Assembly (NCBI GenBank): GCA_948443805.1
Contig: CAOJUB010000004.1
Location: forward strand, 13,881-77,880
DNA from: an uncultured Clostridia bacterium
Lineage (GTDB): Bacteria > Bacillota > Clostridia > Oscillospirales > UBA644
DNA: 64,000 nt
Direction of reading: 5' to 3'
Shown here: piece by piece, positions 3,927 through 60,052 of the stretch
Layout: each line of letters begins with the position of its first letter
Numbering within the stretch: the stretch's first letter is position 1
Translations under genes and position numbers: made by a program
Notes under the pieces: generated by a model
Seen by the model: only the letters and a program-made list of their open reading frames with translations
Databases searched by the model: none
Told to the model about the DNA's origin: nothing

Positions 3927-3946
3927 ATACATTCTCCTTTTCCTTC

Positions 3947-4894: not shown

Positions 4895-4956
4895 TTTTAC
4901 TTCCAATCTTTTAGCAAATTTTTTTGTCTCTCGGTTCTTTAATTTTGTATACATCT

Positions 4957-4987
4957 ATTATAAACTCTTCCCCAACGGAATAGTCAA
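4957..4987 (-). promoter_or_regulatory. MerR-type promoter: TTGACT-19 bp-TATAAT with a dyad in the spacer
   Basis: Minus strand reads TTGACT attccgttggggaagagtt TATAAT (19-nt spacer counted by hand). Imperfect dyad ACTCTTCC-N5-GGAATAGT (4964-4984) is centred on the spacer. Confidence 0.7.
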
Positions 4988-5132
4988 GTCATTTTACATA
5001 AATTTCAAAAATAGTTCAAAATTCAACAGATTCATACAAAAAGAAAAGAATAGAGATAACAGAAAAAGCAAAAGAAATAGAACTAACCAATAAAAACATG
5101 TTGCGTTTCTTTATACGAAAAAAATAAAATTT

Positions 5133-6383
5133 TTAATCTGAAAGATTCGCCAGCGCCTTTTGCATATAGATCAATGCATATTCTTCCAGTTCCCTGCTTC
5201 TGCGTAACCGTTCAATAATATGACTTCTCTTGTCTTTCAAAGCCTCTTTCGGAATCGTACTAAGCTGAGCGGCAATCATCATAATCTCATAAGCAAAACT
5301 TATAATTTCATCATACTGTTTAACCGCCAGCGCCAGGTATTCTTTATCGATACCAGAAATGATATTCATACTCATTTCCAAAAATTGCTTAATTCTTAAT
5401 TTATCCTCATAATGAATAAATGCATGCGGATAAAGACAATGAATCTGATCTGCTTCCTTTACATTTTCTTCTTTCAGCAAATCACTCCAATTTTGATAAA
5501 TTACCATCCCGTAACCGCGCATTTTATCCTTCCCAGAATGTTCTGTATTTAATAGCAATCGAATTCCATTGTGAAGCGCTTTGATACAAGCCTGTTCAAC
5601 CGACAGAGTTTTTCCGGCAGGTTTCAAAATCAGCATATCGCAGCTGTTCCGATACCAACCAGTACATTGATTAAGTTGATTAAAGTCGATTTTAATATTT
5701 TTATCATCACAACCATCTAAAAAACATAGGCCTTTTAAAACTCGTCCCTGATCAGAATATCCCACAGCAAAGATAACATCCCGATATTCTTTCGGAATAA
5801 TAATAACCGGATAGCCGCTTTCAATTTGTTTCCGTGCAACCTCAATAAACTCTTCTTCTGAAAAATCCTGCTGTGATAAATTTTCATAATCTAGCCCATA
5901 GATCAAAAAACTATCCCGGATCCACTCAGGCGGAGCATAGGAATATCCGAAACAAATACTGCTGATCGCAGACTGAAGAATATATTCAGAATCATCATTC
6001 ATCTGACAATTTTGATGGTTTCTCCGTTCTTCCAAACCGAAAAATAATTTAATGGCGGTAAAGAGAGAACCGAGCATAATACTTTTCGGCCACTTTGATC
6101 CAGAATATTCGGCAACAGGAGCTTTCGACAAAATGGTAAACTCATAGTTAAAGTTCGCTGCATACAAAGCGCTTGATTCAAAATTTAGAATAGCATCTAC
6201 GGGGCAATGAAATAAATCTGCCATTTGTACTAAAAAAGTAACGTTCGGCACGGCATTCCCGTTTTCCCATTTGCTGACTGCCTGAGACGAAATCCCCAGC
6301 TTCTCCGCTAAATTTTCTTGCGTATACTTATTTTTTTGCCGTAAAAAAGCGATTTTCTTCCCCATTTTTTTAGCATCAAACAT
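5133..6383 (-). CDS. XRE-family HTH protein fused to a ~345-aa uncharacterised C-terminal domain
   Basis: N-terminal HTH_3 motif YTQENLAEKLGISSQAVSKWENG. AAAGGTGGAG RBS. C-terminal region not recognised. Possibly a papain-like/BtrH-N-like fold (weak). Confidence 0.85.
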   Translation of the reverse strand: MFDAKKMGKKIAFLRQKNKYTQENLAEKLGISSQAVSKWENGNAVPNVTFLVQMADLFHCPVDAILNFESSALYAANFNYEFTILSKAPVAEYSGSKWPKSIMLGSLFTAIKLFFGLEERRNHQNCQMNDDSEYILQSAISSICFGYSYAPPEWIRDSFLIYGLDYENLSQQDFSEEEFIEVARKQIESGYPVIIIPKEYRDVIFAVGYSDQGRVLKGLCFLDGCDDKNIKIDFNQLNQCTGWYRNSCDMLILKPAGKTLSVEQACIKALHNGIRLLLNTEHSGKDKMRGYGMVIYQNWSDLLKEENVKEADQIHCLYPHAFIHYEDKLRIKQFLEMSMNIISGIDKEYLALAVKQYDEIISFAYEIMMIAAQLSTIPKEALKDKRSHIIERLRRSRELEEYALIYMQKALANLSD

Positions 6384-6411
6384 ACCCTTTCTCCACCTTT
6401 CTTTTTTTATT

Positions 6412-6440
6412 ATTATAGCACCATTTTATCAGGTAGTCCA
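6412..6440 (-). promoter_or_regulatory. Sigma-A-type promoter TGGACT-17-TATAAT with extended TG
   Basis: Minus strand reads TGGACT acctgataaaatggtgc TATAAT, upstream of the XRE-fusion gene. Confidence 0.5.
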
Positions 6441-6504
6441 TATAAATTAGGTTGTTTTTTCAATCAGGAACTCTACTTCAGGTTGTATTTTTTTATTTGC
6501 AAAG

Positions 6505-6542
6505 AAGTAGCAGTTCTGCAATGATAAATAGAACTGCTACTT
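6505..6542 (-). terminator. 13-bp perfect hairpin without a U tract (possible operon end or RNA stabiliser)
   Basis: AAGTAGCAGTTCT (6505-6517) pairs with AGAACTGCTACTT (6530-6542) around a 12-nt loop. It lies 45 nt downstream of the 190-aa gene on the minus strand. No T-run follows. Confidence 0.4.
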
Positions 6543-6586
6543 AGGCGATAATATCATACAAAGCATGTGCTTTTTCAAGTTAAAAT

Positions 6587-7159
6587 TTATTTGCAGTATC
6601 GATCCAATACCGCATTACTCCAAATATGCGCTTCCACATATTTTAAATGATGATTGATATGTTTATCTGTAGGATAAATACCCCGTTTGAAATCATATTC
6701 CACATAGGGAGGGAATCCATAACGGTCAATAATTTTAATGATTTCATCTGCAAAATAAACCTGATTCCAATATTCCTCTTCGCCAAATAACGCAGGATCC
6801 AAAATTGCAAAGGAATCACCGTAAGTAAAAGAAACAGTCAGCGGATCAAATTCGGTAAGCGGTATTTTGATAACCGCAGGATTTTCATAAGCGGACGCCC
6901 ATTGTTTGTGTTCACCCAACATCATATAAATTGGCACTGTTCTTTGTGGATTGCCGCCGCGTGCGAGAAACATCTTCCGCAGTTTCCGATCCCTGTCGTA
7001 ACGCTTTTGCAAAAAAACATCGATATTCGGATGACGAAATTTTCCGTCTGCCTTTTGCTGCAGTAAAATCTGTTTCGCTTCTTCAAATGGCAATTCCGTT
7101 AAAGATTTAAACGGCTTAAAATCTCGATTATAATAATGAAACAAAAACAATATATTCAC
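6587..7159 (-). CDS. Hypothetical protein (190 aa)
   Basis: ORF with a GTG start overlapping the VanZ stop (GTGA). No family recognised and no clear RBS, so translational coupling is assumed. Confidence 0.6.
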   Translation of the reverse strand: MNILFLFHYYNRDFKPFKSLTELPFEEAKQILLQQKADGKFRHPNIDVFLQKRYDRDRKLRKMFLARGGNPQRTVPIYMMLGEHKQWASAYENPAVIKIPLTEFDPLTVSFTYGDSFAILDPALFGEEEYWNQVYFADEIIKIIDRYGFPPYVEYDFKRGIYPTDKHINHHLKYVEAHIWSNAVLDRYCK

Positions 7160-7656
7160 CTGTAAGATTTATTTGGGGATATGTTTTTTTCCGTTTTTTT
7201 ACGAAAACAATATGTAAAGAAAATTTTTCCTAAAACCATACAAAAGATTCCGCAAAATGCGCCCAAAGAATCGATTAAGATATCCTGAACCATCGGCCCC
7301 CTGCCGGAAATAATCTGAATGGATTCATCGGTAACGGCAATCAACACTGAAAAAGAAAAGGCGTTCCAAAATTTTTGCAGAGAGAAGCGAAAATCATCAA
7401 TGAAAAAAAATAAAACGGATTCTCCCCCAAGAAGAAAATATTCCGAAAAATGCGCAAGTTTCCGGATATATTTTTCAATAAACAGGAAAACTGAAGAATT
7501 TTCCGCACCAACAGAAATGAAGATATTCCGAATCCATTCTAAAAGCCCGGAGCTCTGCTCTGCGGAATCGGCCTGAGAAAAAGACGAATTTCCCCAAATA
7601 AAACAGACTGTAAAAAAGAGAAAAAAAGCAATAATCCACCTTTGTTTATTCTTCAC
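7156..7656 (-). CDS. VanZ-family membrane protein
   Basis: Multi-TM protein with LAHFSEYFLLG and DESIQ...GR...QDILIDSLGA motifs typical of VanZ-like proteins. GTG start overlaps the transferase 3' end by 11 nt. Confidence 0.8.
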   Translation of the reverse strand: MKNKQRWIIAFFLFFTVCFIWGNSSFSQADSAEQSSGLLEWIRNIFISVGAENSSVFLFIEKYIRKLAHFSEYFLLGGESVLFFFIDDFRFSLQKFWNAFSFSVLIAVTDESIQIISGRGPMVQDILIDSLGAFCGIFCMVLGKIFFTYCFRKKTEKNISPNKSYR

Positions 7657-8323
7657 GTTCCAATACGCTTTCTTTTTTTTCTGTAGTTATGTTTTTTTGC
7701 TTTCCGTCTCCTGTTCCGCCTTCTACTACGCCTTTATGCTGGATAACGGAAACAATTGTTCCGAAAAAGCACTTTACGTCAAAGCCAAACGTAATGTGCT
7801 GAACATATTCACCGTCATATCTTGCTTTATCCGGAATTTCCAGCGCATCGCGGCCATTAATCTGTGCCCAGCCGGTTAAGCCTGGACGAACATCATTTGC
7901 CCCATATTTGTCCCGTTCGGCAATCAGATCGTCTTGATTCCAAAGCGCCGGCCGAGGCCCGATCAACGCCATTTGTCCGATTAAAATATTAAAAATCTGA
8001 GGAAGCTCATCCAAACTTGTTTTTCTGAGAAATTTTCCTATCGGTGTAATCCACTGTTCCGGATTTTGAAGCAAATGTGTCGGCATATCCTTTGGCGTAT
8101 CGATCCGCATTGTCCGAAACTTCAAAATATAAAAATATTTTTTATGCGCGCCGATCCTTTTTTGCTTAAACAATACTGGTCCCGGTGAAGTAATTTTAAT
8201 AAGAAACGCTAAAATCAAAAGAATCGGTGAACAAACAAGGATCGCACAGAATGAAAGAATAACATCCAGAATTCGTTTGATACCGTTTTGGTATAACGAG
8301 CGTTTTTTTTCGGAAAAACGCAT
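7646..8323 (-). CDS. Polyprenyl-phosphate sugar-phosphate transferase (bacterial sugar transferase, WbaP/EpsL-like C-terminal type)
   Basis: Motifs PGPVLFKQKRIG, KFRTM, SLDELPQ, GPRP and GLTGWAQINGRD. Start set to ATG 8323, 7 nt after GGGGGA. Confidence 0.9.
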   Translation of the reverse strand: MRFSEKKRSLYQNGIKRILDVILSFCAILVCSPILLILAFLIKITSPGPVLFKQKRIGAHKKYFYILKFRTMRIDTPKDMPTHLLQNPEQWITPIGKFLRKTSLDELPQIFNILIGQMALIGPRPALWNQDDLIAERDKYGANDVRPGLTGWAQINGRDALEIPDKARYDGEYVQHITFGFDVKCFFGTIVSVIQHKGVVEGGTGDGKQKNITTEKKESVLEREE

Positions 8324-8482
8324 AAAATAATCCCCCAACAATCGGCAAATACATTAAAGAACCGATTTTTTATAAAAAGTACAGTCTTTTATTCTTCTTA
8401 CGATAAAAATAAACCAGAAGAGAGAAATCCCTCAGGTAAAAAGCCTTTCGGGACTTCCCTCTTGTTCTCTCCGAAAAGAGTT

Positions 8483-16676: not shown

Positions 16677-17609
16677 ATGAGCACAAAAAAAGAATTTTAT
16701 TTTCCTTCAGCGGACGGAAAAACGCAGATTCGTGCCGTAGCCCATATACCGGAAGAAACACCGGAAGCAATTCTGCAAATTTCTCACGGAATGGTTGAAT
16801 TTATCGACCGATACGATGATTTTGCAGCCTATTTGGCAGAAAAAAATATTCTTGTTGTAGGTAATGAACACCTTGGCCATGGCAGTTCGGTTCTCTCCAA
16901 AGAAAAATATGGATATTTTGCCGAAAAAAACGGAAAGAACATTGTCCTTTCCGACCTTTATCAACTCACGGCAATCGTGAAAGAAAAATACCCTGCCCTT
17001 CCCTATTTTCTGCTGGGACACAGCATGGGATCTTTTTTTGCAAGACAATATCTTTGTACTTACGGTTCTCAGCTTAACGGCGCAATTATTATGGGAACGG
17101 GTCGTCACTGTCTGCCGGAAACAACAGCGGGAAAAATGCTGACGTCGCTCATTGCGCTTTTTAAAGGCTGGGAATACCGAAGCCGGTGGATTGACAATCT
17201 GGCCTTCGGCGGCTATAATAAAAGATTTCAGCCAGAACGAACTGCAAAAGACTGGCTGACAAAGGATGAAAAAATGGTGGACGCTTATTTACATAACGAG
17301 CGCTGCGGATTTATCTTCACTCTGAATGCTTATCATACGCTTTTTTCGCTGTTATCTGATCTATGCAAAAAAAATAATTTAAGAAAAATGCCGGCCGATC
17401 TCCCGGTATTCTTTGTCGCCGGAGAAGACGATCCTGTCGGCAATTTCGGAAAAAGCGTCCGGCAGGTACAAAAAAGCTTTGTTAAGTTGGGAATGACTGA
17501 TACGGAAATCAAGCTTTATCCGGACGACCGGCACGAAATCCTGAACGAAACCGATCGGCAAACCGTATATGCGGATCTTTATTCCTGGATTTCCCGACAC
17601 CTGAAATAA
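16677..17609 (+). CDS. Alpha/beta hydrolase (lysophospholipase / monoacylglycerol-lipase-like)
   Basis: Nucleophile elbow GHSMGS. HG oxyanion region and a C-terminal D...H pair. Confidence 0.85.
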   Translation: MSTKKEFYFPSADGKTQIRAVAHIPEETPEAILQISHGMVEFIDRYDDFAAYLAEKNILVVGNEHLGHGSSVLSKEKYGYFAEKNGKNIVLSDLYQLTAIVKEKYPALPYFLLGHSMGSFFARQYLCTYGSQLNGAIIMGTGRHCLPETTAGKMLTSLIALFKGWEYRSRWIDNLAFGGYNKRFQPERTAKDWLTKDEKMVDAYLHNERCGFIFTLNAYHTLFSLLSDLCKKNNLRKMPADLPVFFVAGEDDPVGNFGKSVRQVQKSFVKLGMTDTEIKLYPDDRHEILNETDRQTVYADLYSWISRHLK

Positions 17610-39749: not shown

Positions 39750-41102
39750 ATGAAAACAAAAACCGTTTACGTCTGCACCGAATGCGGCGCGGTCACACCG
39801 AAATGGAGCGGAAAATGCACTTCCTGCGGTGAATGGAATACACTGCAGGAAGAAATTCAGACCGCAGAGAAAAAAGCAGTGAAAAGTCCGAAAGTTTCTG
39901 TATTTTCAACACAGCCAATTCATATTTCACAGATTCCACAGGAAGAAGAAAACCGGATATTGACAGGAATCGCCGAATTTGACCGTGTTCTTGGCGGAGG
40001 CATTGTTCAGGGATCGCTGGTTTTGGTTAGTGGAGAACCGGGAATCGGAAAATCGACCATTCTTCTGCAGATTTGCGAACAAATCTGCCGCAACCGAACG
40101 GTTTTATATGTGTCGGGAGAAGAATCGCCCCGTCAGATTAAAATGCGGGCGGAACGGCTCGGCGTCATTTCGGAAAACCTGCTCATTCTGCCCCAAACAG
40201 ATATCCATGAAATTACGGCAAGAATTGAAACGGAATCGCCTGACATGGTCATCATCGATTCGATACAGACTATGGAAAAAGCGGAAGTTACTTCATCGCC
40301 GGGAAGTATCACACAGGTAAAAGAATGCACATCTGATCTGATGCGAACGGCAAAGACCACAGGCTGCCCGATTTTTATTGTCGGTCACGTCAATAAAGAG
40401 GGGTCTATTGCCGGACCAAAAGTTCTGGAACATATGGTGGATGCGGTTCTTTATTTTGAAGGGGAACGGTTTCTCGACTGCCGGATTCTCCGGGCGGTAA
40501 AAAACCGTTTCGGATCTACCAATGAAATCGGCGTTTTTGAAATGACGTCAAAAGGTCTTGTTGAGGTCGATAATCCCTCAAAACTATTCCTTCAGGGGAA
40601 GCCTGAAAATGTATCGGGAATCGCAACCGTTGGTGTTATGGAAGGAAGCCGGCCGATTATTGCGGAAATCCAGGCGCTCGTTACGCAAACACCCTTCCCT
40701 TCTCCGCGAAGAATCGCTTCCGGTTTTGACTATAACCGGCTCAACCTGATTATCGCCGTATTGGAAAAACGGTGCGGTTTCTTTTTCGGGAATTCCGACA
40801 CCTACCTGAACATCATCGGCGGTTTAAGAATTTCCGAACCGGCAGCGGATCTGGCGGTTGCCACAGCGCTGGCTTCCAGTCTGAAAGATTTCATTATTCC
40901 TTCTGATACGATATTGCTTGGCGAAATCGGCCTGGCAGGCGAAGTCCGAACCATTTCCGGACTGGAAAAACGGGTTCTGGAAGCAGAAAAGCTTGGTTAC
41001 ACCCGATGTATTGTTCCGAAGAAGAATAAAATCACCGGTTTTGATTCACAAGCTGAGATTATCGGCGTTTCCAATTTGCGGGAAGTATTCTCAAAAATTT
41101 AA
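39750..41102 (+). CDS. radA: DNA repair protein RadA
   Basis: N-terminal zinc finger CTECG...CTSCGEWN, Walker A GEPGIGKST, KNRFG motif, Lon-like C-terminus. Confidence 0.97.
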   Translation: MKTKTVYVCTECGAVTPKWSGKCTSCGEWNTLQEEIQTAEKKAVKSPKVSVFSTQPIHISQIPQEEENRILTGIAEFDRVLGGGIVQGSLVLVSGEPGIGKSTILLQICEQICRNRTVLYVSGEESPRQIKMRAERLGVISENLLILPQTDIHEITARIETESPDMVIIDSIQTMEKAEVTSSPGSITQVKECTSDLMRTAKTTGCPIFIVGHVNKEGSIAGPKVLEHMVDAVLYFEGERFLDCRILRAVKNRFGSTNEIGVFEMTSKGLVEVDNPSKLFLQGKPENVSGIATVGVMEGSRPIIAEIQALVTQTPFPSPRRIASGFDYNRLNLIIAVLEKRCGFFFGNSDTYLNIIGGLRISEPAADLAVATALASSLKDFIIPSDTILLGEIGLAGEVRTISGLEKRVLEAEKLGYTRCIVPKKNKITGFDSQAEIIGVSNLREVFSKI

Positions 41103-43221: not shown

Positions 43222-43254
43222 AAGAATCCGGCTTGTCCAAGCCGGATTCTTTTC
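43222..43254. terminator. Bidirectional hairpin terminator
   Basis: AAGAATCCGGCTT / AAGCCGGATTCTT 13-bp stem with a 4-nt loop. T-rich on both sides. Confidence 0.8.
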
Positions 43255-43256
43255 AT

Positions 43257-44003
43257 TTAATCATTGAAAACAAATTTCAGGACATCCGGAAGCACCCGGT
43301 CCCAAAGTCCCCATTCATGTGTTCCTTCAACCTCATGATATTCAAGCGGGATGTTCCGCTCCTGAAGATAACGGCTGAATTTCCGGTTATCTTCCAATAA
43401 AAGATCGCTGATACCGCACATCTGATACAAACGGGGAAACGGTTTTCCAGCCTGAATCAGCCGGTCGGCAAGGGCAAATAGATCAGCATCCGAACCTGGC
43501 ATGGTTTTACAATAATCGTCACCCCAAATCGGACGTGCAAAATCAGCATTCTCTTCATCGGAGAGAGCGGCGCAGATATTGGTCACCCCCGACAGGCTTG
43601 CCGCAGCCCCAAAAATATCCGGATTTCGCAGAGCAAGCATAAACGCGCCGTAACCGCCCATAGAAATTCCGGCGACAAAAGTATCTTCCGGCCGTTCGGA
43701 CAAATGGAACATCCGGCGGGTCTGCGGAATCAATTCGTTTATAATATAGGAATAATACGGTTTTCCGACCGCCATATCGGTATAAAAACTATTTTCCCCG
43801 TCAGGGCAGATCAGCGCCGCAGTATGACTTCTGATATACCGTTCCGCACTGGTTCTGCGAAACCAGGTCGTGCAATCATCGCCCATTCCATGCAGCAGAT
43901 AAAGAGTTTTCACATTGTCCTCAGCATACTCCGGCAAATAGACATTAAACCTTGTTTCATGCCCTAAAAGATATGATGGACAGTTACAGGTAAACATTGC
44001 CAT
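43257..44003 (-). CDS. Esterase-family protein (putative esterase / esterase-D-like)
   Basis: LLHGMG... and nucleophile elbow GISMGG. Confidence 0.85.
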   Translation of the reverse strand: MAMFTCNCPSYLLGHETRFNVYLPEYAEDNVKTLYLLHGMGDDCTTWFRRTSAERYIRSHTAALICPDGENSFYTDMAVGKPYYSYIINELIPQTRRMFHLSERPEDTFVAGISMGGYGAFMLALRNPDIFGAAASLSGVTNICAALSDEENADFARPIWGDDYCKTMPGSDADLFALADRLIQAGKPFPRLYQMCGISDLLLEDNRKFSRYLQERNIPLEYHEVEGTHEWGLWDRVLPDVLKFVFND

Positions 44004-44029
44004 AATAAAACCGCCTTTCCGTTATGTCT

Positions 44030-44785
44030 TTATTCCACTATTACATCCGTATCCCAGGATATAAGTACCGAATCCTGTACTTCGGCAGCATTAAAACGAT
44101 AATGACCGGTGGGTTCCGCTATGGATAAATAATTTTCTTCTCGGTTCAGCTGACCTCCGTTATGAATAATATAGGCTTTACCGTCCCGGCTCCTTTGATC
44201 CGAAACAATCCCGATATGGGTATCATCGCCGAAGATTACGATATCACCCGGCTGCCAGGAGGAAAGATCATCCGGATCAACGGGTAACGGCTGGGCATAT
44301 TTCTGAAAAAACACCCGCAGGTTTTTTACCCGGCGAAAATCAATGTTCCGATCCCTTACGGAAACATTAGGATAGTCCTCCGGAAATCTTTCGATATCCT
44401 GATCGACCATATCGCGTAAAGAATATCCGGCCTGCCGAAAAGCGCGCCAAACAACATCGGTGCAAACGCCGATCTCTTTCGGCGGATATCCCTGCGGCCA
44501 GTAACGGTCATCGTATTTCGGATGATTTTCCGCATCTTCCCTTGCCCCGTAAAGCATATCCGTATAGTCATCTATCCCATTCTGGTTCCGGTCACAGGAA
44601 GAATAGATTCTCTCTATCCCCAAATCTTCCATGGACTGAGAATGAACAAAAAAATGATACCATCCAAAAACAAACGCAAGAATCAAAAGAAAAAGAAAAA
44701 TCAGAAGAAAAATGAAAATTTTTTTATTTTGCTGAAAGCTGTGATCCGTTTTCAGTTCCGGATGCCGCCGAAGACGCAACGTCAA
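44030..44785 (-). CDS. DUF1287-domain membrane-anchored protein
   Basis: TM anchor plus GVCTDVVWRAFRQAGY...PGDIVIF...HIGIV motifs. TTG start 8 nt after GAGGGTG. Overlaps the capD-like 3' end by 62 nt. Confidence 0.75.
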   Translation of the reverse strand: MTLRLRRHPELKTDHSFQQNKKIFIFLLIFLFLLILAFVFGWYHFFVHSQSMEDLGIERIYSSCDRNQNGIDDYTDMLYGAREDAENHPKYDDRYWPQGYPPKEIGVCTDVVWRAFRQAGYSLRDMVDQDIERFPEDYPNVSVRDRNIDFRRVKNLRVFFQKYAQPLPVDPDDLSSWQPGDIVIFGDDTHIGIVSDQRSRDGKAYIIHNGGQLNREENYLSIAEPTGHYRFNAAEVQDSVLISWDTDVIVE

Positions 44786-46721
44786 AAGTTTTCACCCTCT
44801 CCTGTTCGCTTTGAGAAGCAGTATGATAAGTGGGAACGATTTTATTCAACATTGTTTTAATATCTCCGCCGTCACTGTAAGCCAGTTCCTTCAGTGTTTT
44901 CAGGTCGTTCATCAAAACATCTTCATCCAGCTTAATCGGATGACCGATAAAAATCCGATTGTTTGAAGTCTTCGTCAGCCCCTCTTCGTCCATCAGCATT
45001 TCTTCATACAGCTTTTCTCCGGGACGCAGACCGGTAAACTGAATATCAATATCGATATACGGTTTAAAACCGGAAAGCCGGATCAGGTTTTCAGCAAGGT
45101 CAACAATTTTTACCGGTTTCCCCATATCAAGAACAAAGATTTCCCCACCCTTTGCAAAGGCGCCGGCCTGCAAAACAAGAGAAACCGCTTCGGGAATCGT
45201 CATAAAATAACGGATGATGTCCGGATGGGTAACCGTAACCGGACCGCCTTCTTTGATCTGCCGTTTAAAAAGAGGAATCACACTCCCGTTACTTCCCAAA
45301 ACATTTCCAAACCGAACGGCGACAAATTCTGTTTTTGATTTTTTATTATAGGTCTGAACAATCATTTCACAGATCCGCTTGGTCGTCCCCATAATATTGG
45401 TCGGGTTTACCGCTTTATCGGTAGAAATCATAACAAACCGGGAAACCTGATACGAATCGGCCGCAGCGACTACGTTCAGGGTACCAAAAACATTGTTTTT
45501 CACCGCTTCTTTCGGAGAATCCTCCATTAAGGGAACATGCTTATGCGCCGCCGCATGATAGACAATATCCGGACGGTGAGCGGCAAATACCTGGTTGACA
45601 CGGTCCGCATCCCGTACCGAGCCGATCAGCACAGCCAGATCCAACTCCGGATGAGACGATTTTAATTCATTCTGTATATCATATGCGTTATTTTCATAGA
45701 TATCAAATATAATGAGTTTTTTAGGCGAATTCTCCGCCAACTGCCGACATAACTCACTGCCGATAGAACCTCCACCGCCGGTAACAAGAACCGTCTTGTT
45801 CTTTACATATTTCATAACGCTGTCAAGTTCCGTCGTAATCGGTTCCCGGCCTAACAGATCGTTGATATCAACTTTTCTTACCGACTGTATAGTAACGGCG
45901 CCGTCGATAAGCTGATAAAGACCGGGAACGGTCTTCAGCTCACAATCTGTCTGATTGCAGATTTCCAGCAAATCCGCCTTTTCTTTTTGAGTAAGCGAAG
46001 GAATGGCAATGATAATTTCATCGACTTTATATTTTTCAACCACGCTGCAAATACTGTCTCTTGTCCCGAGAACGGTAACGCCGTTGATAGCCTGTCCCTG
46101 CACATTTTTATCATCATCAATAAAACCGACAATTTCCATTGTGCTGCGCAGCGCCGTAGAATTAATTTCCCGAAGAAGCATATTCCCAGCCTTTCCGGCG
46201 CCGATAATAAGAAGGCGACGCTTTTCGACATCAGGCATTTCTTCCGGATCATGCTTTTTTCGAAGCTGTAAAAGCGCAATTACTTTCAAAATAACCCGAA
46301 TCCCAACCGTAGCGCAGGAAGCCGTCATCATCGAAATCAAATAGCAACTCAGCGGCAGACGGCAGTCAAAAAAATGATCCAATAGCAAGCTGCCGGCAAG
46401 ATGCAAAATAGAAAGAATAAAGTTTGCAAAAACAAGAAAACCCCATTCCCGCACATCGGCAAACCGCCACATATTTTTATAAATGCCAAACAGCCAGAAA
46501 ACGGCAATAACCGTTAACGTATAAAACGGAATATAAGCAAAATAACTGTTCAGATATTCTCCCAAAATCCGGGATTCATCGATGGAACGAACCCAAAGAG
46601 AAAAAAATACAGAGAAATTCAGAAGAAGAATGTCAAGAATCATATAGAGTACTACCCTTATTTTTCCTAATCTTCCCCCGGATTCAATATTTAAAAAAGT
46701 AGCTGATTTTTCGTTTTTCAT
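44724..46721 (-). CDS. Membrane-bound polysaccharide biosynthesis protein CapD/EpsC/PglF-like (NDP-sugar 4,6-dehydratase)
   Basis: Four N-terminal TM helices, two Rossmann motifs (IIGAGKAG, VTGGGGSIG) and an SDR core (AAHKHVP). Confidence 0.9.
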   Translation of the reverse strand: MKNEKSATFLNIESGGRLGKIRVVLYMILDILLLNFSVFFSLWVRSIDESRILGEYLNSYFAYIPFYTLTVIAVFWLFGIYKNMWRFADVREWGFLVFANFILSILHLAGSLLLDHFFDCRLPLSCYLISMMTASCATVGIRVILKVIALLQLRKKHDPEEMPDVEKRRLLIIGAGKAGNMLLREINSTALRSTMEIVGFIDDDKNVQGQAINGVTVLGTRDSICSVVEKYKVDEIIIAIPSLTQKEKADLLEICNQTDCELKTVPGLYQLIDGAVTIQSVRKVDINDLLGREPITTELDSVMKYVKNKTVLVTGGGGSIGSELCRQLAENSPKKLIIFDIYENNAYDIQNELKSSHPELDLAVLIGSVRDADRVNQVFAAHRPDIVYHAAAHKHVPLMEDSPKEAVKNNVFGTLNVVAAADSYQVSRFVMISTDKAVNPTNIMGTTKRICEMIVQTYNKKSKTEFVAVRFGNVLGSNGSVIPLFKRQIKEGGPVTVTHPDIIRYFMTIPEAVSLVLQAGAFAKGGEIFVLDMGKPVKIVDLAENLIRLSGFKPYIDIDIQFTGLRPGEKLYEEMLMDEEGLTKTSNNRIFIGHPIKLDEDVLMNDLKTLKELAYSDGGDIKTMLNKIVPTYHTASQSEQERVKTFDVASSAASGTENGSQLSAK

Positions 46722-46785
46722 TAACAATATCACTCCGCGGTTAGAATCGTTCGGCTCAGAAATCTTTACTCTGAGACAGGTTCTT

Positions 46786-48012
46786 TTACCGGTTCAGATG
46801 AACCAAATGGCGAACCTGAAATCCGTAATTTTTTAAATGTGCCAGGTCGACCTGTGTTTGCTCGACTGTTGAATCGTTTTGATCAAAGAAAAAGACCGTG
46901 GTTTCAGTATATTTTTTCATATACCGATGATCCGCAACATCTCGCGCCGAACCGGCGACAAAAACAGAATCAAACTCTTCGGAAAGCAGCCTAAATATTT
47001 CCTCCGGTATTTTTCCATCCGATGCTATATCGGAAAAACTGGCCAAAAACAGAGGACTATTATCCAATTGCCAAACAGGAATCTTCTTTTCGGTCAGAGT
47101 AACAGATTTCAGCTTTTTCTCATTCCATTTTTCATCCGTCAGATTCACCAGAAGCGTTTTCTTTTTCTTTCCGGCAAAAAATAACGCAATATCTTTAAAA
47201 ATTCTCTTCGGAGAATGTCTTTCCCCCCAGATTCCGGTCAATAAAACATATTTTTCTCCGGAATCCAGCAGTTCATGAGACATCTGCATAAGAGGGATTG
47301 TATAACTTCCGGAAGAAACATCGCCCCTTGGCCGCGGAAGCAGGCACACGGAACAGTCTTTATCCAAAGACGCCAGAAAAGCGGTAAAATTACCGTCCCG
47401 CAACAAAGCATGCAGCCAGGTAATAACAGCAGACAATACAAATCCAAATAAAAGAATCAAAATGAAAACTTTTGTGGAATAAAGAATATTCGATTCGGTA
47501 TTTTTGATATCGCCGGGAGATATCAGGCAAAAGCCGATAATTTTTTCCGCATGTTTTTCAAAAAGCGAAACGCTATCTTTTAAAAACTGTTCCGCCAGTT
47601 CCGCTTCCGAAGAAGAAACAGAAAAACGCAACGAAGTTTTGTCCGCAAGAACTTCCACCGATATTTTCGGACGGTTTTCGGTTTCTGAAATCTCCAAAAC
47701 ATCAGAATAGAAAGCATCGCTTTCCAGATATTCCTGAACGACTTCCATAATGGCCTTCATAGAATCCTGACCGTATAGGAATTCCAGATTATTCCCGCCG
47801 ACCGTTGCCACATCGGAAGTTTTCAAAGAAACCTGAACCACCATTTCAGAAGTATATGTCATATTGTAGTGCGCTTTTTTCATGAAAAACAAAGTGCCTA
47901 CAGCAAGAAGTCCGATCAATATTCCAAGCCAACCGATTTTTTTAAAAGAATCCCAATATAAAGAAATCTGGCGGTTCAAGGCTGTAATATCACGATCCGA
48001 TCGTTCTTTCAT
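46786..48012 (-). CDS. Wzz-type polysaccharide co-polymerase fused to a strongly degenerate BY-kinase/ParA-like domain
   Basis: TM - extracytoplasmic domain - TM, then a ~200-aa cytoplasmic domain with P-loop-fold topology but GIWGERHS in place of Walker A. AAGGAGGTGA RBS. ATGA overlap with the upstream gene. Confidence 0.65.
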   Translation of the reverse strand: MKERSDRDITALNRQISLYWDSFKKIGWLGILIGLLAVGTLFFMKKAHYNMTYTSEMVVQVSLKTSDVATVGGNNLEFLYGQDSMKAIMEVVQEYLESDAFYSDVLEISETENRPKISVEVLADKTSLRFSVSSSEAELAEQFLKDSVSLFEKHAEKIIGFCLISPGDIKNTESNILYSTKVFILILLFGFVLSAVITWLHALLRDGNFTAFLASLDKDCSVCLLPRPRGDVSSGSYTIPLMQMSHELLDSGEKYVLLTGIWGERHSPKRIFKDIALFFAGKKKKTLLVNLTDEKWNEKKLKSVTLTEKKIPVWQLDNSPLFLASFSDIASDGKIPEEIFRLLSEEFDSVFVAGSARDVADHRYMKKYTETTVFFFDQNDSTVEQTQVDLAHLKNYGFQVRHLVHLNR

Positions 48013-49253
48013 CTTACTGTCACCTCCTTGCAATCAGCATGCAAAAACCGATTTCTCACACAGCATAGAATATTCCCGATGATTTTTTTATCGGAAAGCG
48101 CAGTGAACGCAACAGCCGAAGAAAAACGTTTTGCCGAAGAGCAATCGGAATCAATAACAAACAGAACAGATTCCGCAACATCAGGAAGACGGTCGCCGAC
48201 GGATATATGGCTAATCGCAGGATAATCCCATAAAACACAGTCAACCGACTCCGCAATTTTTTTGACCATAGCTTCGGCTTCTTCCCCGTCAGAAGAAAGC
48301 GAGTAGAACAGCGGCTTGCCGATATTTTCTTTCTTCAAAACAAGATCATCAATATTCGTTTTCTGAAAAACAGGGGTCTGCTTCATTGATAAAGTAGCGT
48401 TAGAAACAACTGCGGTCTTTAGTCCTATCCGAGTCAGCGTTTGCGCCAAACAAGAAACAACATCAGACTTAACTTCAGATTTTTCCGCCGAAGCAACAAG
48501 GAAAATTTTTCTGCCGGAAAAAATCTCTGTTTGTATTTGAGCAGCAAAATTATCCAGCCAAAGCGGTATTCCATTTTTCAATTTCAAACAGGACTCCTGA
48601 TCGATTTTTACCTGAAAACCAGCCGAATCCGGAATTAATTCGTCAATATCCGAAAGTTTTTTAATCGCATTTACCGAAGCGGAAAAAATAATCAGAAAAA
48701 GAAAAATCAGGAAAAAGGATATCAGCGGAAAAATCAGATACAAAATTCCGGAGCCGGAACCATTCTGAACCAGGGTGTCCGGGAAATGAATAATTTCCAA
48801 CGCAGATATCGAATTAAAATAACTGGAGATATCAGGATAAGCGGCGATCAATGCGGAAATCGCATGATACGACTGCTCGGGAGAACTCCCCTGCGCGGAA
48901 ATGGTAATCAAACCGCTTTCCTTCTGCAGGGAAAGCGTCATTTTCGGTAATGAATGAAACGGTATTTCCGGGACAAATGACTCCCAGAGAGACTCGTTTT
49001 CCAAAACACTTTTTAAATTTCCGGAAGCCGTTTTGGCGGCAGAATTCGCGGACCAAATATTAGAAACCTGAGAATTGCGATCATAAATCCTGACTGTTGC
49101 GGAATATTCACCGCGATTGGACTGTGACCATCCGTTATTTTCATAAATATAGGCAGCCATCAATCCAAGCAGAACAGAAAGAAGAAGAACCCACCAATTT
49201 TTCCGGATGTCATCCGCAATATTAAGCAAATGAATTTTCAATGTTTTTTTCAT
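48009..49253 (-). CDS. Wzz-type polysaccharide co-polymerase fused to a BY-kinase-like domain with impaired Walker A and no Tyr cluster
   Basis: Wzz-like N-terminus (DIRKNWWVLLLSVLLG) and a second TM. Cytoplasmic domain IFLVASAEKSEVKSD...VDCVLWDYPA...IGNILCCVRN resembles CpsD/CapB order, but Walker A reads AEKSEVKS. ATG 49253 lies 8 nt after GAGGA. Confidence 0.65.
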   Translation of the reverse strand: MKKTLKIHLLNIADDIRKNWWVLLLSVLLGLMAAYIYENNGWSQSNRGEYSATVRIYDRNSQVSNIWSANSAAKTASGNLKSVLENESLWESFVPEIPFHSLPKMTLSLQKESGLITISAQGSSPEQSYHAISALIAAYPDISSYFNSISALEIIHFPDTLVQNGSGSGILYLIFPLISFFLIFLFLIIFSASVNAIKKLSDIDELIPDSAGFQVKIDQESCLKLKNGIPLWLDNFAAQIQTEIFSGRKIFLVASAEKSEVKSDVVSCLAQTLTRIGLKTAVVSNATLSMKQTPVFQKTNIDDLVLKKENIGKPLFYSLSSDGEEAEAMVKKIAESVDCVLWDYPAISHISVGDRLPDVAESVLFVIDSDCSSAKRFSSAVAFTALSDKKIIGNILCCVRNRFLHADCKEVTVR

Positions 49254-49257
49254 ATTC

Positions 49258-50211
49258 TTAATCCTCAACGACTACAGTCAGAACGACCGCCGATTTAAAC
49301 TTTAATTCTTTTAAACCGCTGCCGCTGAATGCGGCTTCAAAAGACGGATAATCATATTTTCCCGTCATATCAGAAAAGACTTCGTTTCGACCCGAAGTGT
49401 CTGTCGCCCATCCGATATTGGAGGTCTCCGGAATATAATAAACAATATGATAAACCGAATCATATTCCGGGTTTCCGACATACAATGTCTGAACTTCTTC
49501 ATAGGGAACCTGCAGATTCAGCTGCGTAACAGTATCATACCGATGAAAGTCTTTTACATAACTCTCAGGATCAACGATATCGCCACGCTTTACATACACA
49601 ATATTGTTCGTCAGAGTCATCACATACCCACTTCCTGACTGGTGACGAACAATAGATTTTAACGGAAGAGTCACAATATCCCCAACGGAATTTTTGACCT
49701 GGATCAAAAGCGTATAGATTCCCGGCGCATCATGATCCATGTCTGTTGTTATAATTTTTGCTTTATAGGAAATATCACCGTCAAAAACGTCCGTAATTTT
49801 CAGCGCATCAACAATATAACCGCTTCCGTCCAAAGAATACAGCAGCGGAAATTTTAAATCAACACGGGGAGAATGATAGCCTTCTATCACAGCATCCACA
49901 GTATACTCTGAAGAAATCCCTTTCTCGTCAAACACAATATAAGTAACTAAAAAGCGTTCCTTTCCTTCTGCTTTTGCAAGACTTTTTATAGATATTTTTT
50001 CGCTGATATCCTTTCCCTTTGAATCAAACGCACGAACACCGCTGAGCAGTTCCTCTCGGTAATTTTCTAAAGAGACAACGATATTTTCCTCATTTTTCTC
50101 AAAAGACGGCGGATTTTTCGACTGCTTTCCGATATTTGTGATCATAAAAAATAATGCGGCAAGAAAAGTTACCGAAAAAAGAACAAGAAACCCTCTACGA
50201 AACCAATGCAT
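49258..50211 (-). CDS. Membrane-anchored protein with Ig-like (DUF5011-type) repeats
   Basis: N-terminal TM anchor. Repeats such as ITDVFDGDISYKAKIITTDMDHDAPGIYTLLIQVKNSVGD. Start at ATG 50211 after GGAGGA. Confidence 0.65.
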   Translation of the reverse strand: MHWFRRGFLVLFSVTFLAALFFMITNIGKQSKNPPSFEKNEENIVVSLENYREELLSGVRAFDSKGKDISEKISIKSLAKAEGKERFLVTYIVFDEKGISSEYTVDAVIEGYHSPRVDLKFPLLYSLDGSGYIVDALKITDVFDGDISYKAKIITTDMDHDAPGIYTLLIQVKNSVGDIVTLPLKSIVRHQSGSGYVMTLTNNIVYVKRGDIVDPESYVKDFHRYDTVTQLNLQVPYEEVQTLYVGNPEYDSVYHIVYYIPETSNIGWATDTSGRNEVFSDMTGKYDYPSFEAAFSGSGLKELKFKSAVVLTVVVED

Positions 50212-50415
50212 AAAATCCTCCATTCAATCTGCCGATAAAAACGGGAAATCCATGAAATTTTATAAAATTCTATTTTGAAATACCCGGATATGGCTTCTCC
50301 CTGAAGAGAATACCCTTCTACCCTGCCTGCTAACCTAATCAAATATTTGCCTGCTCGGAAAAACACCGGCGGCGCAACGCCCTGCTTGGCTAAATAGCCG
50401 AACAATGTTTTTCAC

Positions 50416-50435
50416 AAGAACAACTTGCTGTTCTT
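50416..50435. repeat. 20-bp palindrome copy 1: AAGAACAACTTGCTGTTCTT (one arm mismatch)
   Basis: Read directly. About +100 relative to the predicted start site of the operon leader. Confidence 0.9.
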
Positions 50436-50460
50436 TTCCTACCCATAAATTTCGCACCAG

Positions 50461-50514
50461 AAAAAAGCGGGGATTCGGAACGGATTTTCAACCGAACGGT
50501 TGAAACGCTTTTTT
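50461..50514. promoter_or_regulatory. Symmetric element A6GCG...CGCT6 enclosing hairpin TTTCAACC-GAAC-GGTTGAAA
   Basis: Read directly. On the plus strand the hairpin (50486-50505) is followed at once by CGCTTTTTT, so it is terminator-like and antisense to the operon. Confidence 0.6.
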
Positions 50515-50517
50515 CCC

Positions 50518-50537
50518 AAGAACAGCTTGCTGTTCTT
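50518..50537. repeat. 20-bp perfect palindrome copy 2: AAGAACAGCTTGCTGTTCTT
   Basis: Read directly. It starts 1 nt downstream of the -10 box of the operon promoter, in a candidate operator position. Confidence 0.9.
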
Positions 50538-50538
50538 T

Positions 50539-50567
50539 ATTATACCATATTTGACTTTTTTTGTCAA
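50539..50567 (-). promoter_or_regulatory. Consensus sigma-A promoter TTGACA-17-TGgTATAAT
   Basis: Minus strand reads TTGACA aaaaaagtcaaatatgg TATAAT (17-nt spacer counted by hand). It points at the 49258-50211 gene, about 320 nt away. Confidence 0.7.
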
Positions 50568-50598
50568 CAAAAGCCAAAAGAGAACCCATGCGCTCTCA

Positions 50599-51999
50599 CT
50601 ATTCCTGATGCCACTGTCCGAAAACTGTAAGACAAATTAAACCCGGCTCAATTCCGGCAGGTGAACCGGTAATCCGAAGCCTGATTTCACTGGCAGTCAC
50701 CGTCTCGAACGTTTGATAGTCTATCACATAATCCTCACGGCTATCCGAACGATCAAGAACGGGAAACCATTCCCCATCTAAGGAACGCGCTTCCAGTGTG
50801 TATTGAAAAGCGCCCGGAAGAATTCCGTTGCGGATATCCAGTCCAACATCCCGCCAGATCAGCCGAACCGCAGAAATGTCAGAGCCTGTCTCTGTTAATT
50901 TTACCCGAATCCATGGATTTTTATCCCCGGGAGCAGGCTGCCACCAAGACAACATGCTTTCATCCACCGCATACAGCGGATTGCGTCCGGGAAGACAAGA
51001 CGAAGCCTCTGTTTCATGATGAAAGGTCAGAGGCAGCAGACCGGCGTCGTTCCCCTCTTCCGGATGAGCTACGGTTCCGGGAGCGAACTGCGGCGTTTCA
51101 GTGACGTGCTTCACATAAAGATTTCCGTGTTCATCGATTCCAAGCGGATCCATACCGATCCGCCGCTCTAACTTATAGGAATAACAAAGTACGCAGGTAT
51201 AAAAAGCCCACAGCGTATTTTCCGGACCTTCCACAACACAACCGTGTCCCGGACCTTTAACCAATCCGGCTGTTTTTTTGATAAAAGGACTGCTTTCCAT
51301 ATACGTAAAAGGCCCCAGCGGAGATTTTGCCGTATACGCCCCCATCGCATAAGTAACCCACTCGGTACCGGGTCCGCAATAAGTCAGATAATACGTACCG
51401 TTCCGCTTCAGCATATAAGCGCCTTCAATCCAGCTATGACTAGCGTCCTCATTCCAGTCTCCGACCCGTTCCCAGACATGATCCGGATTATAGGAAAAAA
51501 GCAGTTTCGGCTCAGAAATAAAGTGAGTAGGCTCATCAGAAGCCAGTTCCACGCCGAAAATGCCTTCGCCGCCACAGCCCCAATAAAGATACAGCCGACT
51601 GTCGTCATCCGAAAAAATCATCGGATCGTCAACCCGGTAAATTTTCCCGTCTACGCCGGTAAAAGCGCCAAGTGAAGAAAAAGGCCCTAACGGACTATCC
51701 GAGACCCATAAATCAGCGCTGCATGCCGTCAGATAAAATTTATTTTTATGTTTTACAACTGTTGGCGCATAACCGATATCGTCAAACGGTTCGATTTTAT
51801 GATGTTTCCACGAAACAAAATCCTCACTGTAATACGCCATGCCGCAGGAAGGATACATATACCATTTTCCCCCCTCATAAATCACCGTAGGATCGGCAGT
51901 TTCCCGAAAATCTTCCATTTCATATTCACGGCATCTTCGTCCGATCGGATAATTCGGAAGAGGCAGGGGGTTGCAGTAGGTATTCTGATACTTTTTCAT
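50599..51999 (-). CDS. Glycoside hydrolase family 43 with C-terminal F5/8-type-C (discoidin/CBM32-like) domain, no signal peptide
   Basis: GH43 five-bladed propeller motifs (DPTVIYEGGKWYMY, WAPTV-like, catalytic acidic residues) and a C-terminal discoidin-like ~130 aa. ATG 51999 lies 6 nt after GGAG. Confidence 0.85.
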   Translation of the reverse strand: MKKYQNTYCNPLPLPNYPIGRRCREYEMEDFRETADPTVIYEGGKWYMYPSCGMAYYSEDFVSWKHHKIEPFDDIGYAPTVVKHKNKFYLTACSADLWVSDSPLGPFSSLGAFTGVDGKIYRVDDPMIFSDDDSRLYLYWGCGGEGIFGVELASDEPTHFISEPKLLFSYNPDHVWERVGDWNEDASHSWIEGAYMLKRNGTYYLTYCGPGTEWVTYAMGAYTAKSPLGPFTYMESSPFIKKTAGLVKGPGHGCVVEGPENTLWAFYTCVLCYSYKLERRIGMDPLGIDEHGNLYVKHVTETPQFAPGTVAHPEEGNDAGLLPLTFHHETEASSCLPGRNPLYAVDESMLSWWQPAPGDKNPWIRVKLTETGSDISAVRLIWRDVGLDIRNGILPGAFQYTLEARSLDGEWFPVLDRSDSREDYVIDYQTFETVTASEIRLRITGSPAGIEPGLICLTVFGQWHQE

Positions 52000-52054
52000 A
52001 TCTTTCTCCATTCCGCCGAAATTCGGCGCTTATTTTCCATTCTTTTTCCTATCC

Positions 52055-53706: not shown

Positions 53707-54351
53707 TCACTCACCGGGAAATGATTCCAAAAGGAATTCCGCAATATCATTTTCATAAGAAAATAAATAAGGAGATAAATCGCCGAACATACGGGTAAGC
53801 CAGGATTCCAGCTGATCTTCTCCGTATGTCATGGCAATCAACTGACAGGCCAGAATATAACGGATGGTTTTTTCCGAAAATCCATATATCTCGGGAGAAA
53901 CAAAAATAGTCCCGGATAATTTCCCATAACCGGCAAAAGTACGAACCTTCTTTCGTACCCGTATCTCCGGAATCGATGCCATATCCGGGAATTGCTTCGC
54001 CTGCCTGCTGATAATCTCCGAACAATAATCACGCAGCATGCGGCCGCGCCAAAGCTCAAACATTCTCTGATATTCTTTTGTCCGGCTTCCGCCGTGGGTG
54101 CAGATAATAAACTGATCACCAGTCAGTTCAATCCGACAAAAAGGTCTCTTTTTTAATACAAGATGATATTTTCTCCCCAAAATACGAACCTCGCCGCCAG
54201 GCAGAAGCGAACCGGATTTCCTGCGGCTGTTAATCTGCTTGATTCCAGTCTTAAACTGCCAAAAATGTTGCATCATAAACACATCCCCATTTCCAGCAAA
54301 CCAACGGTTTTCCTTTTTTTCTATTTCCACAACTTCCACAACAATAATCAA
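53707..54351 (-). CDS. DUF45/YgjP-like (M48-related) protein lacking the HExxH motif
   Basis: Order of conserved blocks resembles DUF45 (KYHLVLKK..., IRVRKKVRTFAGYG, TIRYILACQLIAM), but CQLIA sits where HELxH is expected. TTG start in a TTGA overlap, with alternative ATGs at 54276/54273. Confidence 0.6.
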   Translation of the reverse strand: MIIVVEVVEIEKKENRWFAGNGDVFMMQHFWQFKTGIKQINSRRKSGSLLPGGEVRILGRKYHLVLKKRPFCRIELTGDQFIICTHGGSRTKEYQRMFELWRGRMLRDYCSEIISRQAKQFPDMASIPEIRVRKKVRTFAGYGKLSGTIFVSPEIYGFSEKTIRYILACQLIAMTYGEDQLESWLTRMFGDLSPYLFSYENDIAEFLLESFPGE

Positions 54352-55622
54352 GTCAAATAAGCAAAGGTTATGGATAAAATCAGTTTATCCTGATCAAAAT
54401 TAGAATAAATCAATTCTCGATCCAGAGAAGAAAAAGAGGAAGGCAGCGCGGCCAGCATATCAAAAATTGCCTCCTCTGCAAACAGGATCCGCTGGCACTG
54501 TTCGGAAACTTCCGGCGAACTGAACTGAAACGATACTTCAGTATTACCCTCGGCAAGCGCTGTTTGCATCCCCTGATAAAAACAGTCATAATCATAGGTT
54601 TCCAAAAACAGATTGTTGTAACGGTAATAATGATATGTTTCTGCCAAACAATCCGGATAAGCAAGCAAACTGTCAAGCTGATGATCTTTTTCGATTTCTG
54701 CTGTTGTAACAGCAAAATAATCATACCGGAGCATATCCGCTTCTTCGCTTTCGCTGACCGGATCATCCCAGGTTAAGTCAAAATGATAATAATCGCCGTC
54801 GATCTGTACAATATTCCAGGCGTGTCCTTCTTCCCGGCTATCGCCGGTTACATAAAGCGCGTACATCCCCGAGCGGGCAAGCAAATACTGAAAAAGCTTG
54901 GCATAACCGCTGCAAACAATCTGACTCCGGGTAAAAAAACCAAGAATGGAATAAGCGGAAAAATATTCTTTAGGAACGGTATATTTCCCTTTCAAATGGC
55001 TTGGCTGATCGATTTTATCCGCAGCGGCAGAATTATAGGAGGCATGTTCAATAATATAATCATGCAGATATTTGGCTTTCAGATACTCGGTAGGCTGTTT
55101 GGCTGCTTCCGCAAGAATTTTCTGCGATTGCGTTTCTATCAATTCTTTATAAACGGCAACATCCTCCTGTTTCATCAAATAATGAAACTGATACGACCGG
55201 ATACATTTTTTTCCGTTTATCGTAGTGACCCAGTATTCTCCGCACCACTCATCCGCCCAGAAATATTCCGGATGGTCGGAAAAAACAGCATACACAACCA
55301 GATCGAATTCCTCCGGCGTAAAGAAAAATGGTCCGTCTATTTCTTCCGTATAAGCTTCAATACTGCTGCAAAGTATCGAATATAACTCTTTTTGCGATTC
55401 ATTCAATAAAGAATAGGAATAAAAAGCCAGATCGCCGGCTTCTCCACTATAACGGTAATCCGATTTAGGAGGCTCTGGTTCCGAAGCGCCGGACGAAACA
55501 TTTTCCCCCGGGATTTCCGGATGAGAAGGTTCCGGAATAAATTTCCGAAGTACACATCCTGTTGCCTGCCAACAAAAAACAAGAATCAACAACAGAATAA
55601 AAATCCGCTTGATTTTTCCCAT
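54348..55622 (-). CDS. Transglutaminase-like (papain-fold) lipoprotein
   Basis: Lipobox WQATGC. Core triad context CSGYAKLF ... GHAWNIV ... DLTWDD. Confidence 0.8.
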   Translation of the reverse strand: MGKIKRIFILLLILVFCWQATGCVLRKFIPEPSHPEIPGENVSSGASEPEPPKSDYRYSGEAGDLAFYSYSLLNESQKELYSILCSSIEAYTEEIDGPFFFTPEEFDLVVYAVFSDHPEYFWADEWCGEYWVTTINGKKCIRSYQFHYLMKQEDVAVYKELIETQSQKILAEAAKQPTEYLKAKYLHDYIIEHASYNSAAADKIDQPSHLKGKYTVPKEYFSAYSILGFFTRSQIVCSGYAKLFQYLLARSGMYALYVTGDSREEGHAWNIVQIDGDYYHFDLTWDDPVSESEEADMLRYDYFAVTTAEIEKDHQLDSLLAYPDCLAETYHYYRYNNLFLETYDYDCFYQGMQTALAEGNTEVSFQFSSPEVSEQCQRILFAEEAIFDMLAALPSSFSSLDRELIYSNFDQDKLILSITFAYLT

Positions 55623-55681: not shown

Positions 55682-55710
55682 ATTATACGTCAAGATTTCT
55701 TTTTTGTCAA
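55682..55710 (-). promoter_or_regulatory. Consensus sigma-A promoter TTGACA-17-TATAAT
   Basis: Minus strand reads TTGACA aaaaagaaatcttgacg TATAAT, upstream of the transglutaminase-like gene. Confidence 0.65.
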
Positions 55711-60020: not shown

Positions 60021-60052
60021 GCGGTACAGTTGTTCTACTGTACCGCTTTTTT
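60021..60052. terminator. Bidirectional rho-independent terminator
   Basis: GCGGTACAG / CTGTACCGC stem, T6 downstream on plus and an A-run upstream. Serves galU and ftsH. Confidence 0.85.

Follow-up and report, generated by a model that had tools for sequence, protein, structure and literature searches.

Two near-identical palindromes, called here P1 and P2, mark the intergenic region between a GH43 gene (50599-52011) and the first gene of an operon read on the minus strand. The region lies in the 64 kb window, i.e. the whole stretch of DNA analyzed. The operon encodes a 317-aa membrane-anchored Ig-like protein, two degenerate Wzz/tyrosine-kinase-like proteins, a CapD/Polysacc_synt_2 dehydratase, a DUF1287 protein and an esterase. 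Among 5.8 billion proteins, homologs of the first gene product form no more than four clusters. Genes 2 and 3 (46786-49268, minus strand; 419 and 415 aa) are weakly similar to Wzz/BY-kinase proteins, with scores below all curated cut-offs. GH43 and SpoIVA genes are found upstream, and SpoVAD is also encoded within the window; given the presence of SpoIVA and SpoVAD, the host is placed among the spore-forming Clostridia. The organism is represented only by metagenome assemblies (NCBI MAGs, ENA, Logan). Neighbour genes have housekeeping functions (RadA-like, PGK, TIM, FtsH, ValRS, ArgR, and others). No regulator gene adjoins the operon, and no transcription factor or recombinase was found less than 40 kb from the site. 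The left end of the window (284-8341) hosts another small cluster of envelope-polysaccharide genes, with regulators of its own; the palindrome is absent from it. This cluster includes a XerC/D-like tyrosine recombinase (284-1297), a MerR-family gene, a 416-aa Xre-family HTH gene, hypothetical genes, VanZ, and a Bac_transf sugar transferase. Features of the intergenic region are listed in Table 1.

Table 1. Features of the promoter and leader region, with positions in the window; the last two rows give sequence forms referred to in the text.
Feature	Position	Strand	Remarks
Terminator-like hairpin of the upstream GH43 gene	50580..50597	minus	separates GH43 from the promoter
-35 hexamer TTGACA	50562..50567	minus	part of the 12/12 promoter match
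Extended -10 TGgTATAAT	50539..50547	minus	TG 50547..50546, TATAAT 50544..50539
Putative 72-nt cassette (30+12+30) ATGGTATAAT...ATCCGTTCC	50548..50477		-10 box, P1, A-run, H
29-nt direct repeat, copy 1	50510..50538	minus	P1 and 3' flank GGGAAAAA
Palindrome 1 (P1) AAGAACAGC-AA-GCTGTTCTT	50518..50537	dyad, read on minus	1 nt from the -10 box
Long hairpin closed by GAAAAAAGCG / CGCTTTTTTC, encloses H	50460..50515	minus	fold
Palindrome H TTTCAACCG-TT-CGGTTGAAA, 9-2-9	50486..50505	dyad, read on minus	between the repeats
29-nt direct repeat, copy 2	50408..50436	minus	flank GTGAAAAA in the window, GGGAAAAA in L110 and L162
Palindrome 2 (P2) AAGAACAGCAAGtTGTTCTT	50416..50435	dyad, read on minus	1 mismatch vs P1
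GC-rich segment GCGTTGCGCCGCCGGTGTTTTTCC	50357..50380	minus	leader alignment of two lineages
Ribosome-binding site GGAGGA and ATG	50209..50221	minus	gene calls of public assemblies
Downstream operon	43257..50211	minus	surface-polysaccharide genes
Search form of the palindrome AAGAACAGCAAGCTGTTCTT			
Inverted junction expected of a recombination switch, GCTGTTCTT-TTCCTACCCAT, also written as GCTGTTCTT followed by TTCCTACCC			

The promoter reported in an earlier note on this DNA was confirmed. TTGACA-17-TGgTATAAT, on the minus strand, is a sigma-70-type promoter matching the consensus at 12 of 12 positions, with a 17-nt spacer and an extended -10 motif. The 64 kb window contains three exact TTGACA-N16-18-TATAAT sequences, of which this promoter is one; it is predicted to be strong, and is not unique in the window. 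The other exact TTGACA-N17-TATAAT promoters are found at 55682-55710 (minus strand), upstream of a transglutaminase-like gene (54348-55622), and at 17191-17219 (plus strand). According to the usual geometry, with +1 as the seventh base after the -10, transcription is predicted to start at about 50532 (a C), with purines at 50533, 50531 and 50530. From this position P1 would span about -5 to +15, and about 320 nt separate the predicted start from the ATG at 50211, both as previously proposed. The start codon, also placed at 50211 in the earlier note, is that of the 317-aa gene in public assemblies.

P1 had been described as a perfect palindrome. The two 9-nt arms do pair throughout; the 2-base centre (AA/TT) is not self-complementary. 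The second copy, as claimed, carries one mismatch (19/20 identity) at an offset of exactly 102 bp, and the C>T difference in P2 would result in a G-U pair in the sense RNA. The spacing had been viewed as close to ten helical turns, which is approximate only, as 102 bp correspond to 9.7 turns at 10.5 bp/turn, and to 10.0 turns only at 10.2 bp/turn. P1 and P2 are the sole sites within the window when both strands are searched with up to 3 mismatches (0.01 sites expected from shuffled sequences). No further copies were found in about 82 kb searched. The likeness noted between the flanks is real, as the palindromes are part of a 29-nt direct repeat, the copies of which are 93% identical and fit the consensus AAAGAACAGCAAG[C/T]TGTTCTTG[G/T]GAAAAA. 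Beyond 29 nt no likeness is left: the local alignment score of the remainder is 12, vs a shuffle mean of 13. This sharp limit suggests either constraint on the repeat or a precise duplication. Both the AA centre and the 3' flank G(G/T)GAAAAA are asymmetric, and have the same (direct) orientation in the two copies. Neither P1 nor P2 is an intrinsic terminator: the flanks which follow (GGGAAAAA and GTGAAAAA, respectively) contain no T run, and both palindromes are absent from the terminator scan.

The segment between the repeats hosts a third palindrome, H, flanked by the 10-nt A-run and T-run of a perfect inverted repeat. The resulting long hairpin has a predicted folding energy of -20.4 kcal/mol in the sense strand (z = -3.2) and of -21.4 kcal/mol in the antisense strand (z = -2.9); the stem is rich in A and U, and the two strands fold to much the same degree. 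On the plus strand H is followed by CGCTTTTTTC, a terminator-like arrangement. Within 50436-50517 a hairpin plus T run of this type is found only on the plus strand, antisense to the operon, and no nearby plus-strand gene would need a terminator there. Downstream of P2, the 50357-50380 block, GCGTTGCGCCGCCGG(T/C)GTTTTTCC, is the leader part best conserved between two lineages. A small GC hairpin followed by a U run makes this block a possible weak attenuator. Depending on the base present, the C/T difference would make a 5-bp GC hairpin just ahead of the U run more or less stable; the terminator scan did not pick out this block.

Within the species the leader hardly varies: six assemblies differ at no more than 3 of 340 compared positions. 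At window position 50413, two assemblies (L110 and L162) have GGG, not GTG, in the flank of copy 2, and the 29-mers are there 28/29 identical; gene conversion or selection on the flank may account for this change. In a second lineage, encoding proteins about 94-96% identical (L145, L157), the promoter is kept in both samples. P1 is unchanged in L145 (...TATAATAAAGAACAGCAAGCTGTTCTT), while in L157 the left arm carries a G>A substitution. In this lineage the three bases after P1 are ATG, not GGG, and the contigs end there. The region from P1 to about 20 nt past the position of P2 is unassembled in both samples (contig ends in L145 and L157, contig starts in L156 and L001), and between the two samples the contig ends are shifted symmetrically, by 5 nt on either side. 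The same synteny from GH43 to gene 1 was found around a more distant ortholog (L002, 61% identity), preceded by the promoter TTGACA-17-TGgTATACT. The leader of L002 measures only about 75 nt and is free of palindromes, and the palindrome-bearing stretch of about 250 nt is therefore lineage-specific. Examination of orthologous leaders, as suggested in the earlier note, thus gave a divided answer: P1 is kept in the lineage at about 95% identity, and is missing in the 61% ortholog.

A cross-species regulon was searched for by scanning 185,579 species genomes, plus viral contigs, for AAGAACARCNNGYTGTTCTT, and was rejected, as the matches listed lie in coding regions, terminators and unrelated leaders, the latter including those of mraY, ribosomal protein L1, CotF and a GDSL lipase. 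By our own estimate, which assumes equal base frequencies, chance alone would produce about 70 matches in 596 Gb of species genomes. Neither the junction of promoter and P1 nor H was found in JGI metagenomes, and H was not found in viral contigs. In two Lachnospiraceae MAGs (L013:30-120 and L051:165-255) the same 20-mer is located directly after a hairpin of about 17-30 bp. The stems of the two hairpins differ by paired changes (AAGCATT/AATGCTT vs AGTCTGC/GCAGACT), and the 20-mers reside upstream of unrelated genes, mraY and a gene encoding an 866-aa protein without Pfam family. Rfam searches of these hairpins gave only chance hairpin matches; they may represent a dispersed hairpin element, or a leader of another kind. 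The MAG hosting L051 also contains, between convergent ORFs (L071:1440-1545), a 49-bp tandem repeat, the unit of which holds GCGG-AAGAACAGCCTGCTGTTCTT-CCTGC and is probably terminator-like.

Assemblies break reproducibly at the locus. Logan contigs (k=31) were examined at L112, L113, L115, L146-L149, L153 and L154. Those with gene 1, derived from at least 7 unrelated runs, all begin at 50506 ('GTTTCAACCG...'), 1 nt before H; those with GH43 (at least 2) stop at 50519 ('...GCTGTTCT'), i.e. at base 19 of P1. A 12-nt gap (TGGGAAAAAAGC) separates the two break points, 50519 and 50506, which closely adjoin the feet of the two hairpins. SPAdes-type contigs read through the break site. One NCBI MAG contig (L116) begins at position 14 of the 72-mer listed in Table 1, where the node graph would start at k=59. 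The breaks fit an exact second copy of the 72 nt at another locus, or else a different allele at this one. That the cassette formed by -10 box, P1 and H is a repeated module present at further loci, or marks a hotspot of DNA heterogeneity within the population, is quite unlikely. Other sources of the breaks were also considered. A generic palindrome artefact is weakened by Logan contigs which, to judge from their sizes (11-19 kb), extend across further perfect palindromes in the window (43225-43248, 40067-40088, 60022-60045). Break points worked out by hand for inversion, deletion or duplication involving P1 and P2, for a flipped A-run/T-run hairpin and for fold-back chimeras are 1-20 nt off in each case, and these sources were rejected. 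If a second copy of the cassette exists, at least one more promoter would carry the same palindrome, which would favour operators and a regulon; the palindrome would then be the hallmark of a small set of promoters under common control, or else of hairpin-directed rearrangement. The reproducible break is the only feature hinting at something less ordinary.

The arrangement of the repeats is well defined and non-random. A dyad-symmetric 9-2-9 site overlaps the predicted transcription start 1 nt past the -10, the dyad occurs twice with 19/20 identity where 0.01 sites are expected, and promoter and P1 recur together in the second lineage. On these grounds P1 and P2 are tentatively regarded as twin operators for a repressor encoded elsewhere, a reading given somewhat less than an even chance. 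A dimeric DNA-binding repressor, possibly forming tetramers and encoded elsewhere in the genome, would bind both P1 and P2. By covering a consensus extended -10 sigma-A promoter from about -5 to +15, the protein bound at P1 would block open complex formation or promoter escape. P2, 102 bp downstream within the leader, would contribute through cooperative binding, as the second foot of a loop or as a roadblock. Upon release of the repressor, the surface-polysaccharide operon would be transcribed very strongly. From the layout of the sites we infer protein binding and repression, as well as any looping. The MerR and Xre genes of the second polysaccharide cluster, 44-46 kb off, are no more than candidates for the cognate repressor.

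Since the predicted start falls within P1, the left arm (-5 to -1) would not be transcribed, yet it is intact, which favours a site acting as double-stranded DNA; for P1, a DNA operator is the best available reading of the sequence. The lack of any Rfam family in the leader points the same way. Other data count against operators. The roughly 82 kb searched contain no further site. The 61% ortholog keeps the promoter without the palindromes, and the G>A change in L157 affects the left arm in the divergent lineage. The asymmetric direct flank and the AA centre are not needed by a dyad-symmetric operator, and therefore speak against it, and the difference in P2 keeps G-U pairing, and is equally compatible with a role in RNA. 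Of the two-operator looping repressor proposed in the earlier note, the part that fits is a DNA operator at P1, over the start; the adjoining genes include no regulator, and the spacing amounts to 9.7 turns.

Repression of a strong promoter through two operators is known for E. coli lac (O1/O2) and gal (OE/OI). As at lac and gal, a dyad site covers the start of a near-consensus promoter, and a near-identical second site is found about 100 bp away within the transcribed region. In contrast to lac and gal, the sites are separated by 9.7 turns rather than by an integer number, carry a conserved asymmetric flank, and are candidate sites recognized by sequence in uncultured Clostridia. By analogy, the closest functional counterpart would be a promoter repressed through two operators. 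The 'Cheo box' recognized by LexA/DinR in Firmicutes is GAAC-N4-GTTC. It shares the GAAC...GTTC core with the palindromes; an SOS box was rejected, as the spacing here is N8, not N4. SinR of B. subtilis acts at eps and tapA (yqxM) through the half-site GTTCTYT, with sites distributed over 80-100 bp and tetramer looping proposed (PMC3163267). Likenesses to this system include the target, an exopolysaccharide-type operon in a spore former, and the half-sites, as both copies contain AAAGAAC, the complement of GTTCTTT (7/7), and GTTCTTG (6/7). The geometry differs. High-affinity SinR sites (GTTCTCT-AA-AGAGAAC) have inward half-sites with centres 9 bp apart, whereas the sites described here (ARAGAAC-N8-GTTCTYT) have outward half-sites, an 8-bp gap, and centres 15 bp apart. 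A SinR-type site was therefore rejected: the half-site fits, the arrangement GTTCTYT-N2-ARAGAAC is not found. No SinR homolog was detected in the window by tblastn with B. subtilis SinR as query.

The repeats may be viewed instead as RNA elements of the leader of about 320 nt. Either the right half of P1 and the left half of P2 would pair and enclose H, or P2 and H would form local hairpins, and mRNA stability or attenuation would be affected, for instance via the GC hairpin and U run at 50380..50357. When RNA is folded from 50532, the transcribed right half of P1 (nt 1-15) forms a 13-bp long-range helix with the left half of P2; this pairing follows automatically from the existence of two palindrome copies, and the fold is no better than that of shuffled sequence (z = -1.0). 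Whole-leader folds do not clearly surpass shuffles (z = -1.0; z = -2.3); the A-run/U-run hairpin around H has z = -3.2. P1 as RNA would fold at -8.8 kcal/mol, and the P2 hairpin, in which the G-U pair preserves pairing, at -6.3 kcal/mol. The earlier note also placed a stem-loop of copy 1 at the very 5' end of the mRNA. This part of the claim is not sustained, as transcripts starting at 50533-50531 would retain only 3-4 bp of stem. Since the left arm is mostly upstream of the predicted start, we infer from promoter geometry that a 5'-terminal P1 hairpin is unavailable, and the perfect retention of this untranscribed arm argues against a function in RNA. No match to Rfam 15 (riboswitches, EAR, leaders) was found in the window at gathering thresholds; the sole match in the leader to a covariance model has E = 8.3, i.e. 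chance. The available leaders are near-identical, making covariation impossible, and the 61% ortholog has no such leader. The strand-specific flank GGGAAAAA and the orientation of the AA centre are conserved, the substitution in P2 keeps G-U pairing, and the 50357-50380 block is the leader part best conserved between lineages; the first three features fit a strand-specific (RNA) function just as well as an operator. On balance, we consider an RNA-level element rather unlikely. The repeats may also have no regulatory role of their own, and be a by-product of local duplication or of a hairpin-rich insertion: a 29-nt piece beside the -10 would have been copied 102 bp downstream, or a segment rich in hairpins inserted after the promoter. 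The additional 250 nt or so of leader are indeed lineage-specific, the repeats are direct with asymmetric flanks, and the sequence before copy 2 weakly resembles the -10 region (ATGGGTAGGAA vs ATGGTATAATA). In addition, many unrelated genomes contain the same 20-mer, either by chance or within ordinary hairpins. In contrast, the copies are identical at 27-28 of 29 positions, with no detectable similarity just outside, the flank of copy 2 is now nearer to copy 1 in one sub-lineage (GGG), and P1 sits exactly over the start of a consensus promoter, which is unexpected for junk. A long tandem duplication was rejected, as similarity ends at 29 nt. A by-product origin is a rather improbable account of the repeats.

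A further possibility is a recombination switch of the cwpV/flgB type, in which flipping of the 82-bp segment between P1 and P2 would put H and CGCTTTTTT in the sense strand and turn the operon off. When treated as inverted repeats, the copies reach 85% complementarity; the window also encodes a XerC/D-like tyrosine recombinase (284-1297), and k=31 contigs break reproducibly at the site. Excision of 102 bp between direct sites would be sterically implausible. As at the C. difficile loci (PMC2784873, PMC5386303), repeats of about 20 bp delimit a short segment which separates a fixed promoter from the ORF of a surface structure, as the cwpV segment does (PMC2784873), and a terminator-like structure was flagged in one orientation only, here on the plus strand, although both strands fold to a similar degree. 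In C. difficile cwpV, 21-bp inverted repeats flank a 195-bp segment (PMC2784873), much longer than the 82 bp found here. Against a switch, a single orientation was observed in all six independent full-length assemblies (the window, the GCA_965614095.1 contig, read as L114 and L160, and L110, L111, L161 and L162) and in seven Logan contigs, which cover the 82-bp segment from H onwards and continue into P2. These contigs pass P2 unbranched, which is incompatible with P1/P2 inversion in the samples concerned. The asymmetric parts of the repeats are direct, and the central 8 bp match at 7/8 positions in direct, vs 5/8 in inverted, orientation. With one orientation throughout and the asymmetric features direct, inversion of the cwpV type was rejected as the main reading, and is held to be very unlikely. 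The weight remaining outside these four readings goes to something not considered here.

The element is thus a species-specific candidate site of an ordinary kind. If P1 and P2 are operators, they would provide a handle for finding the regulator of a surface-polysaccharide operon in an uncultured spore-former, and the case would show how a maximal promoter can be kept silent.
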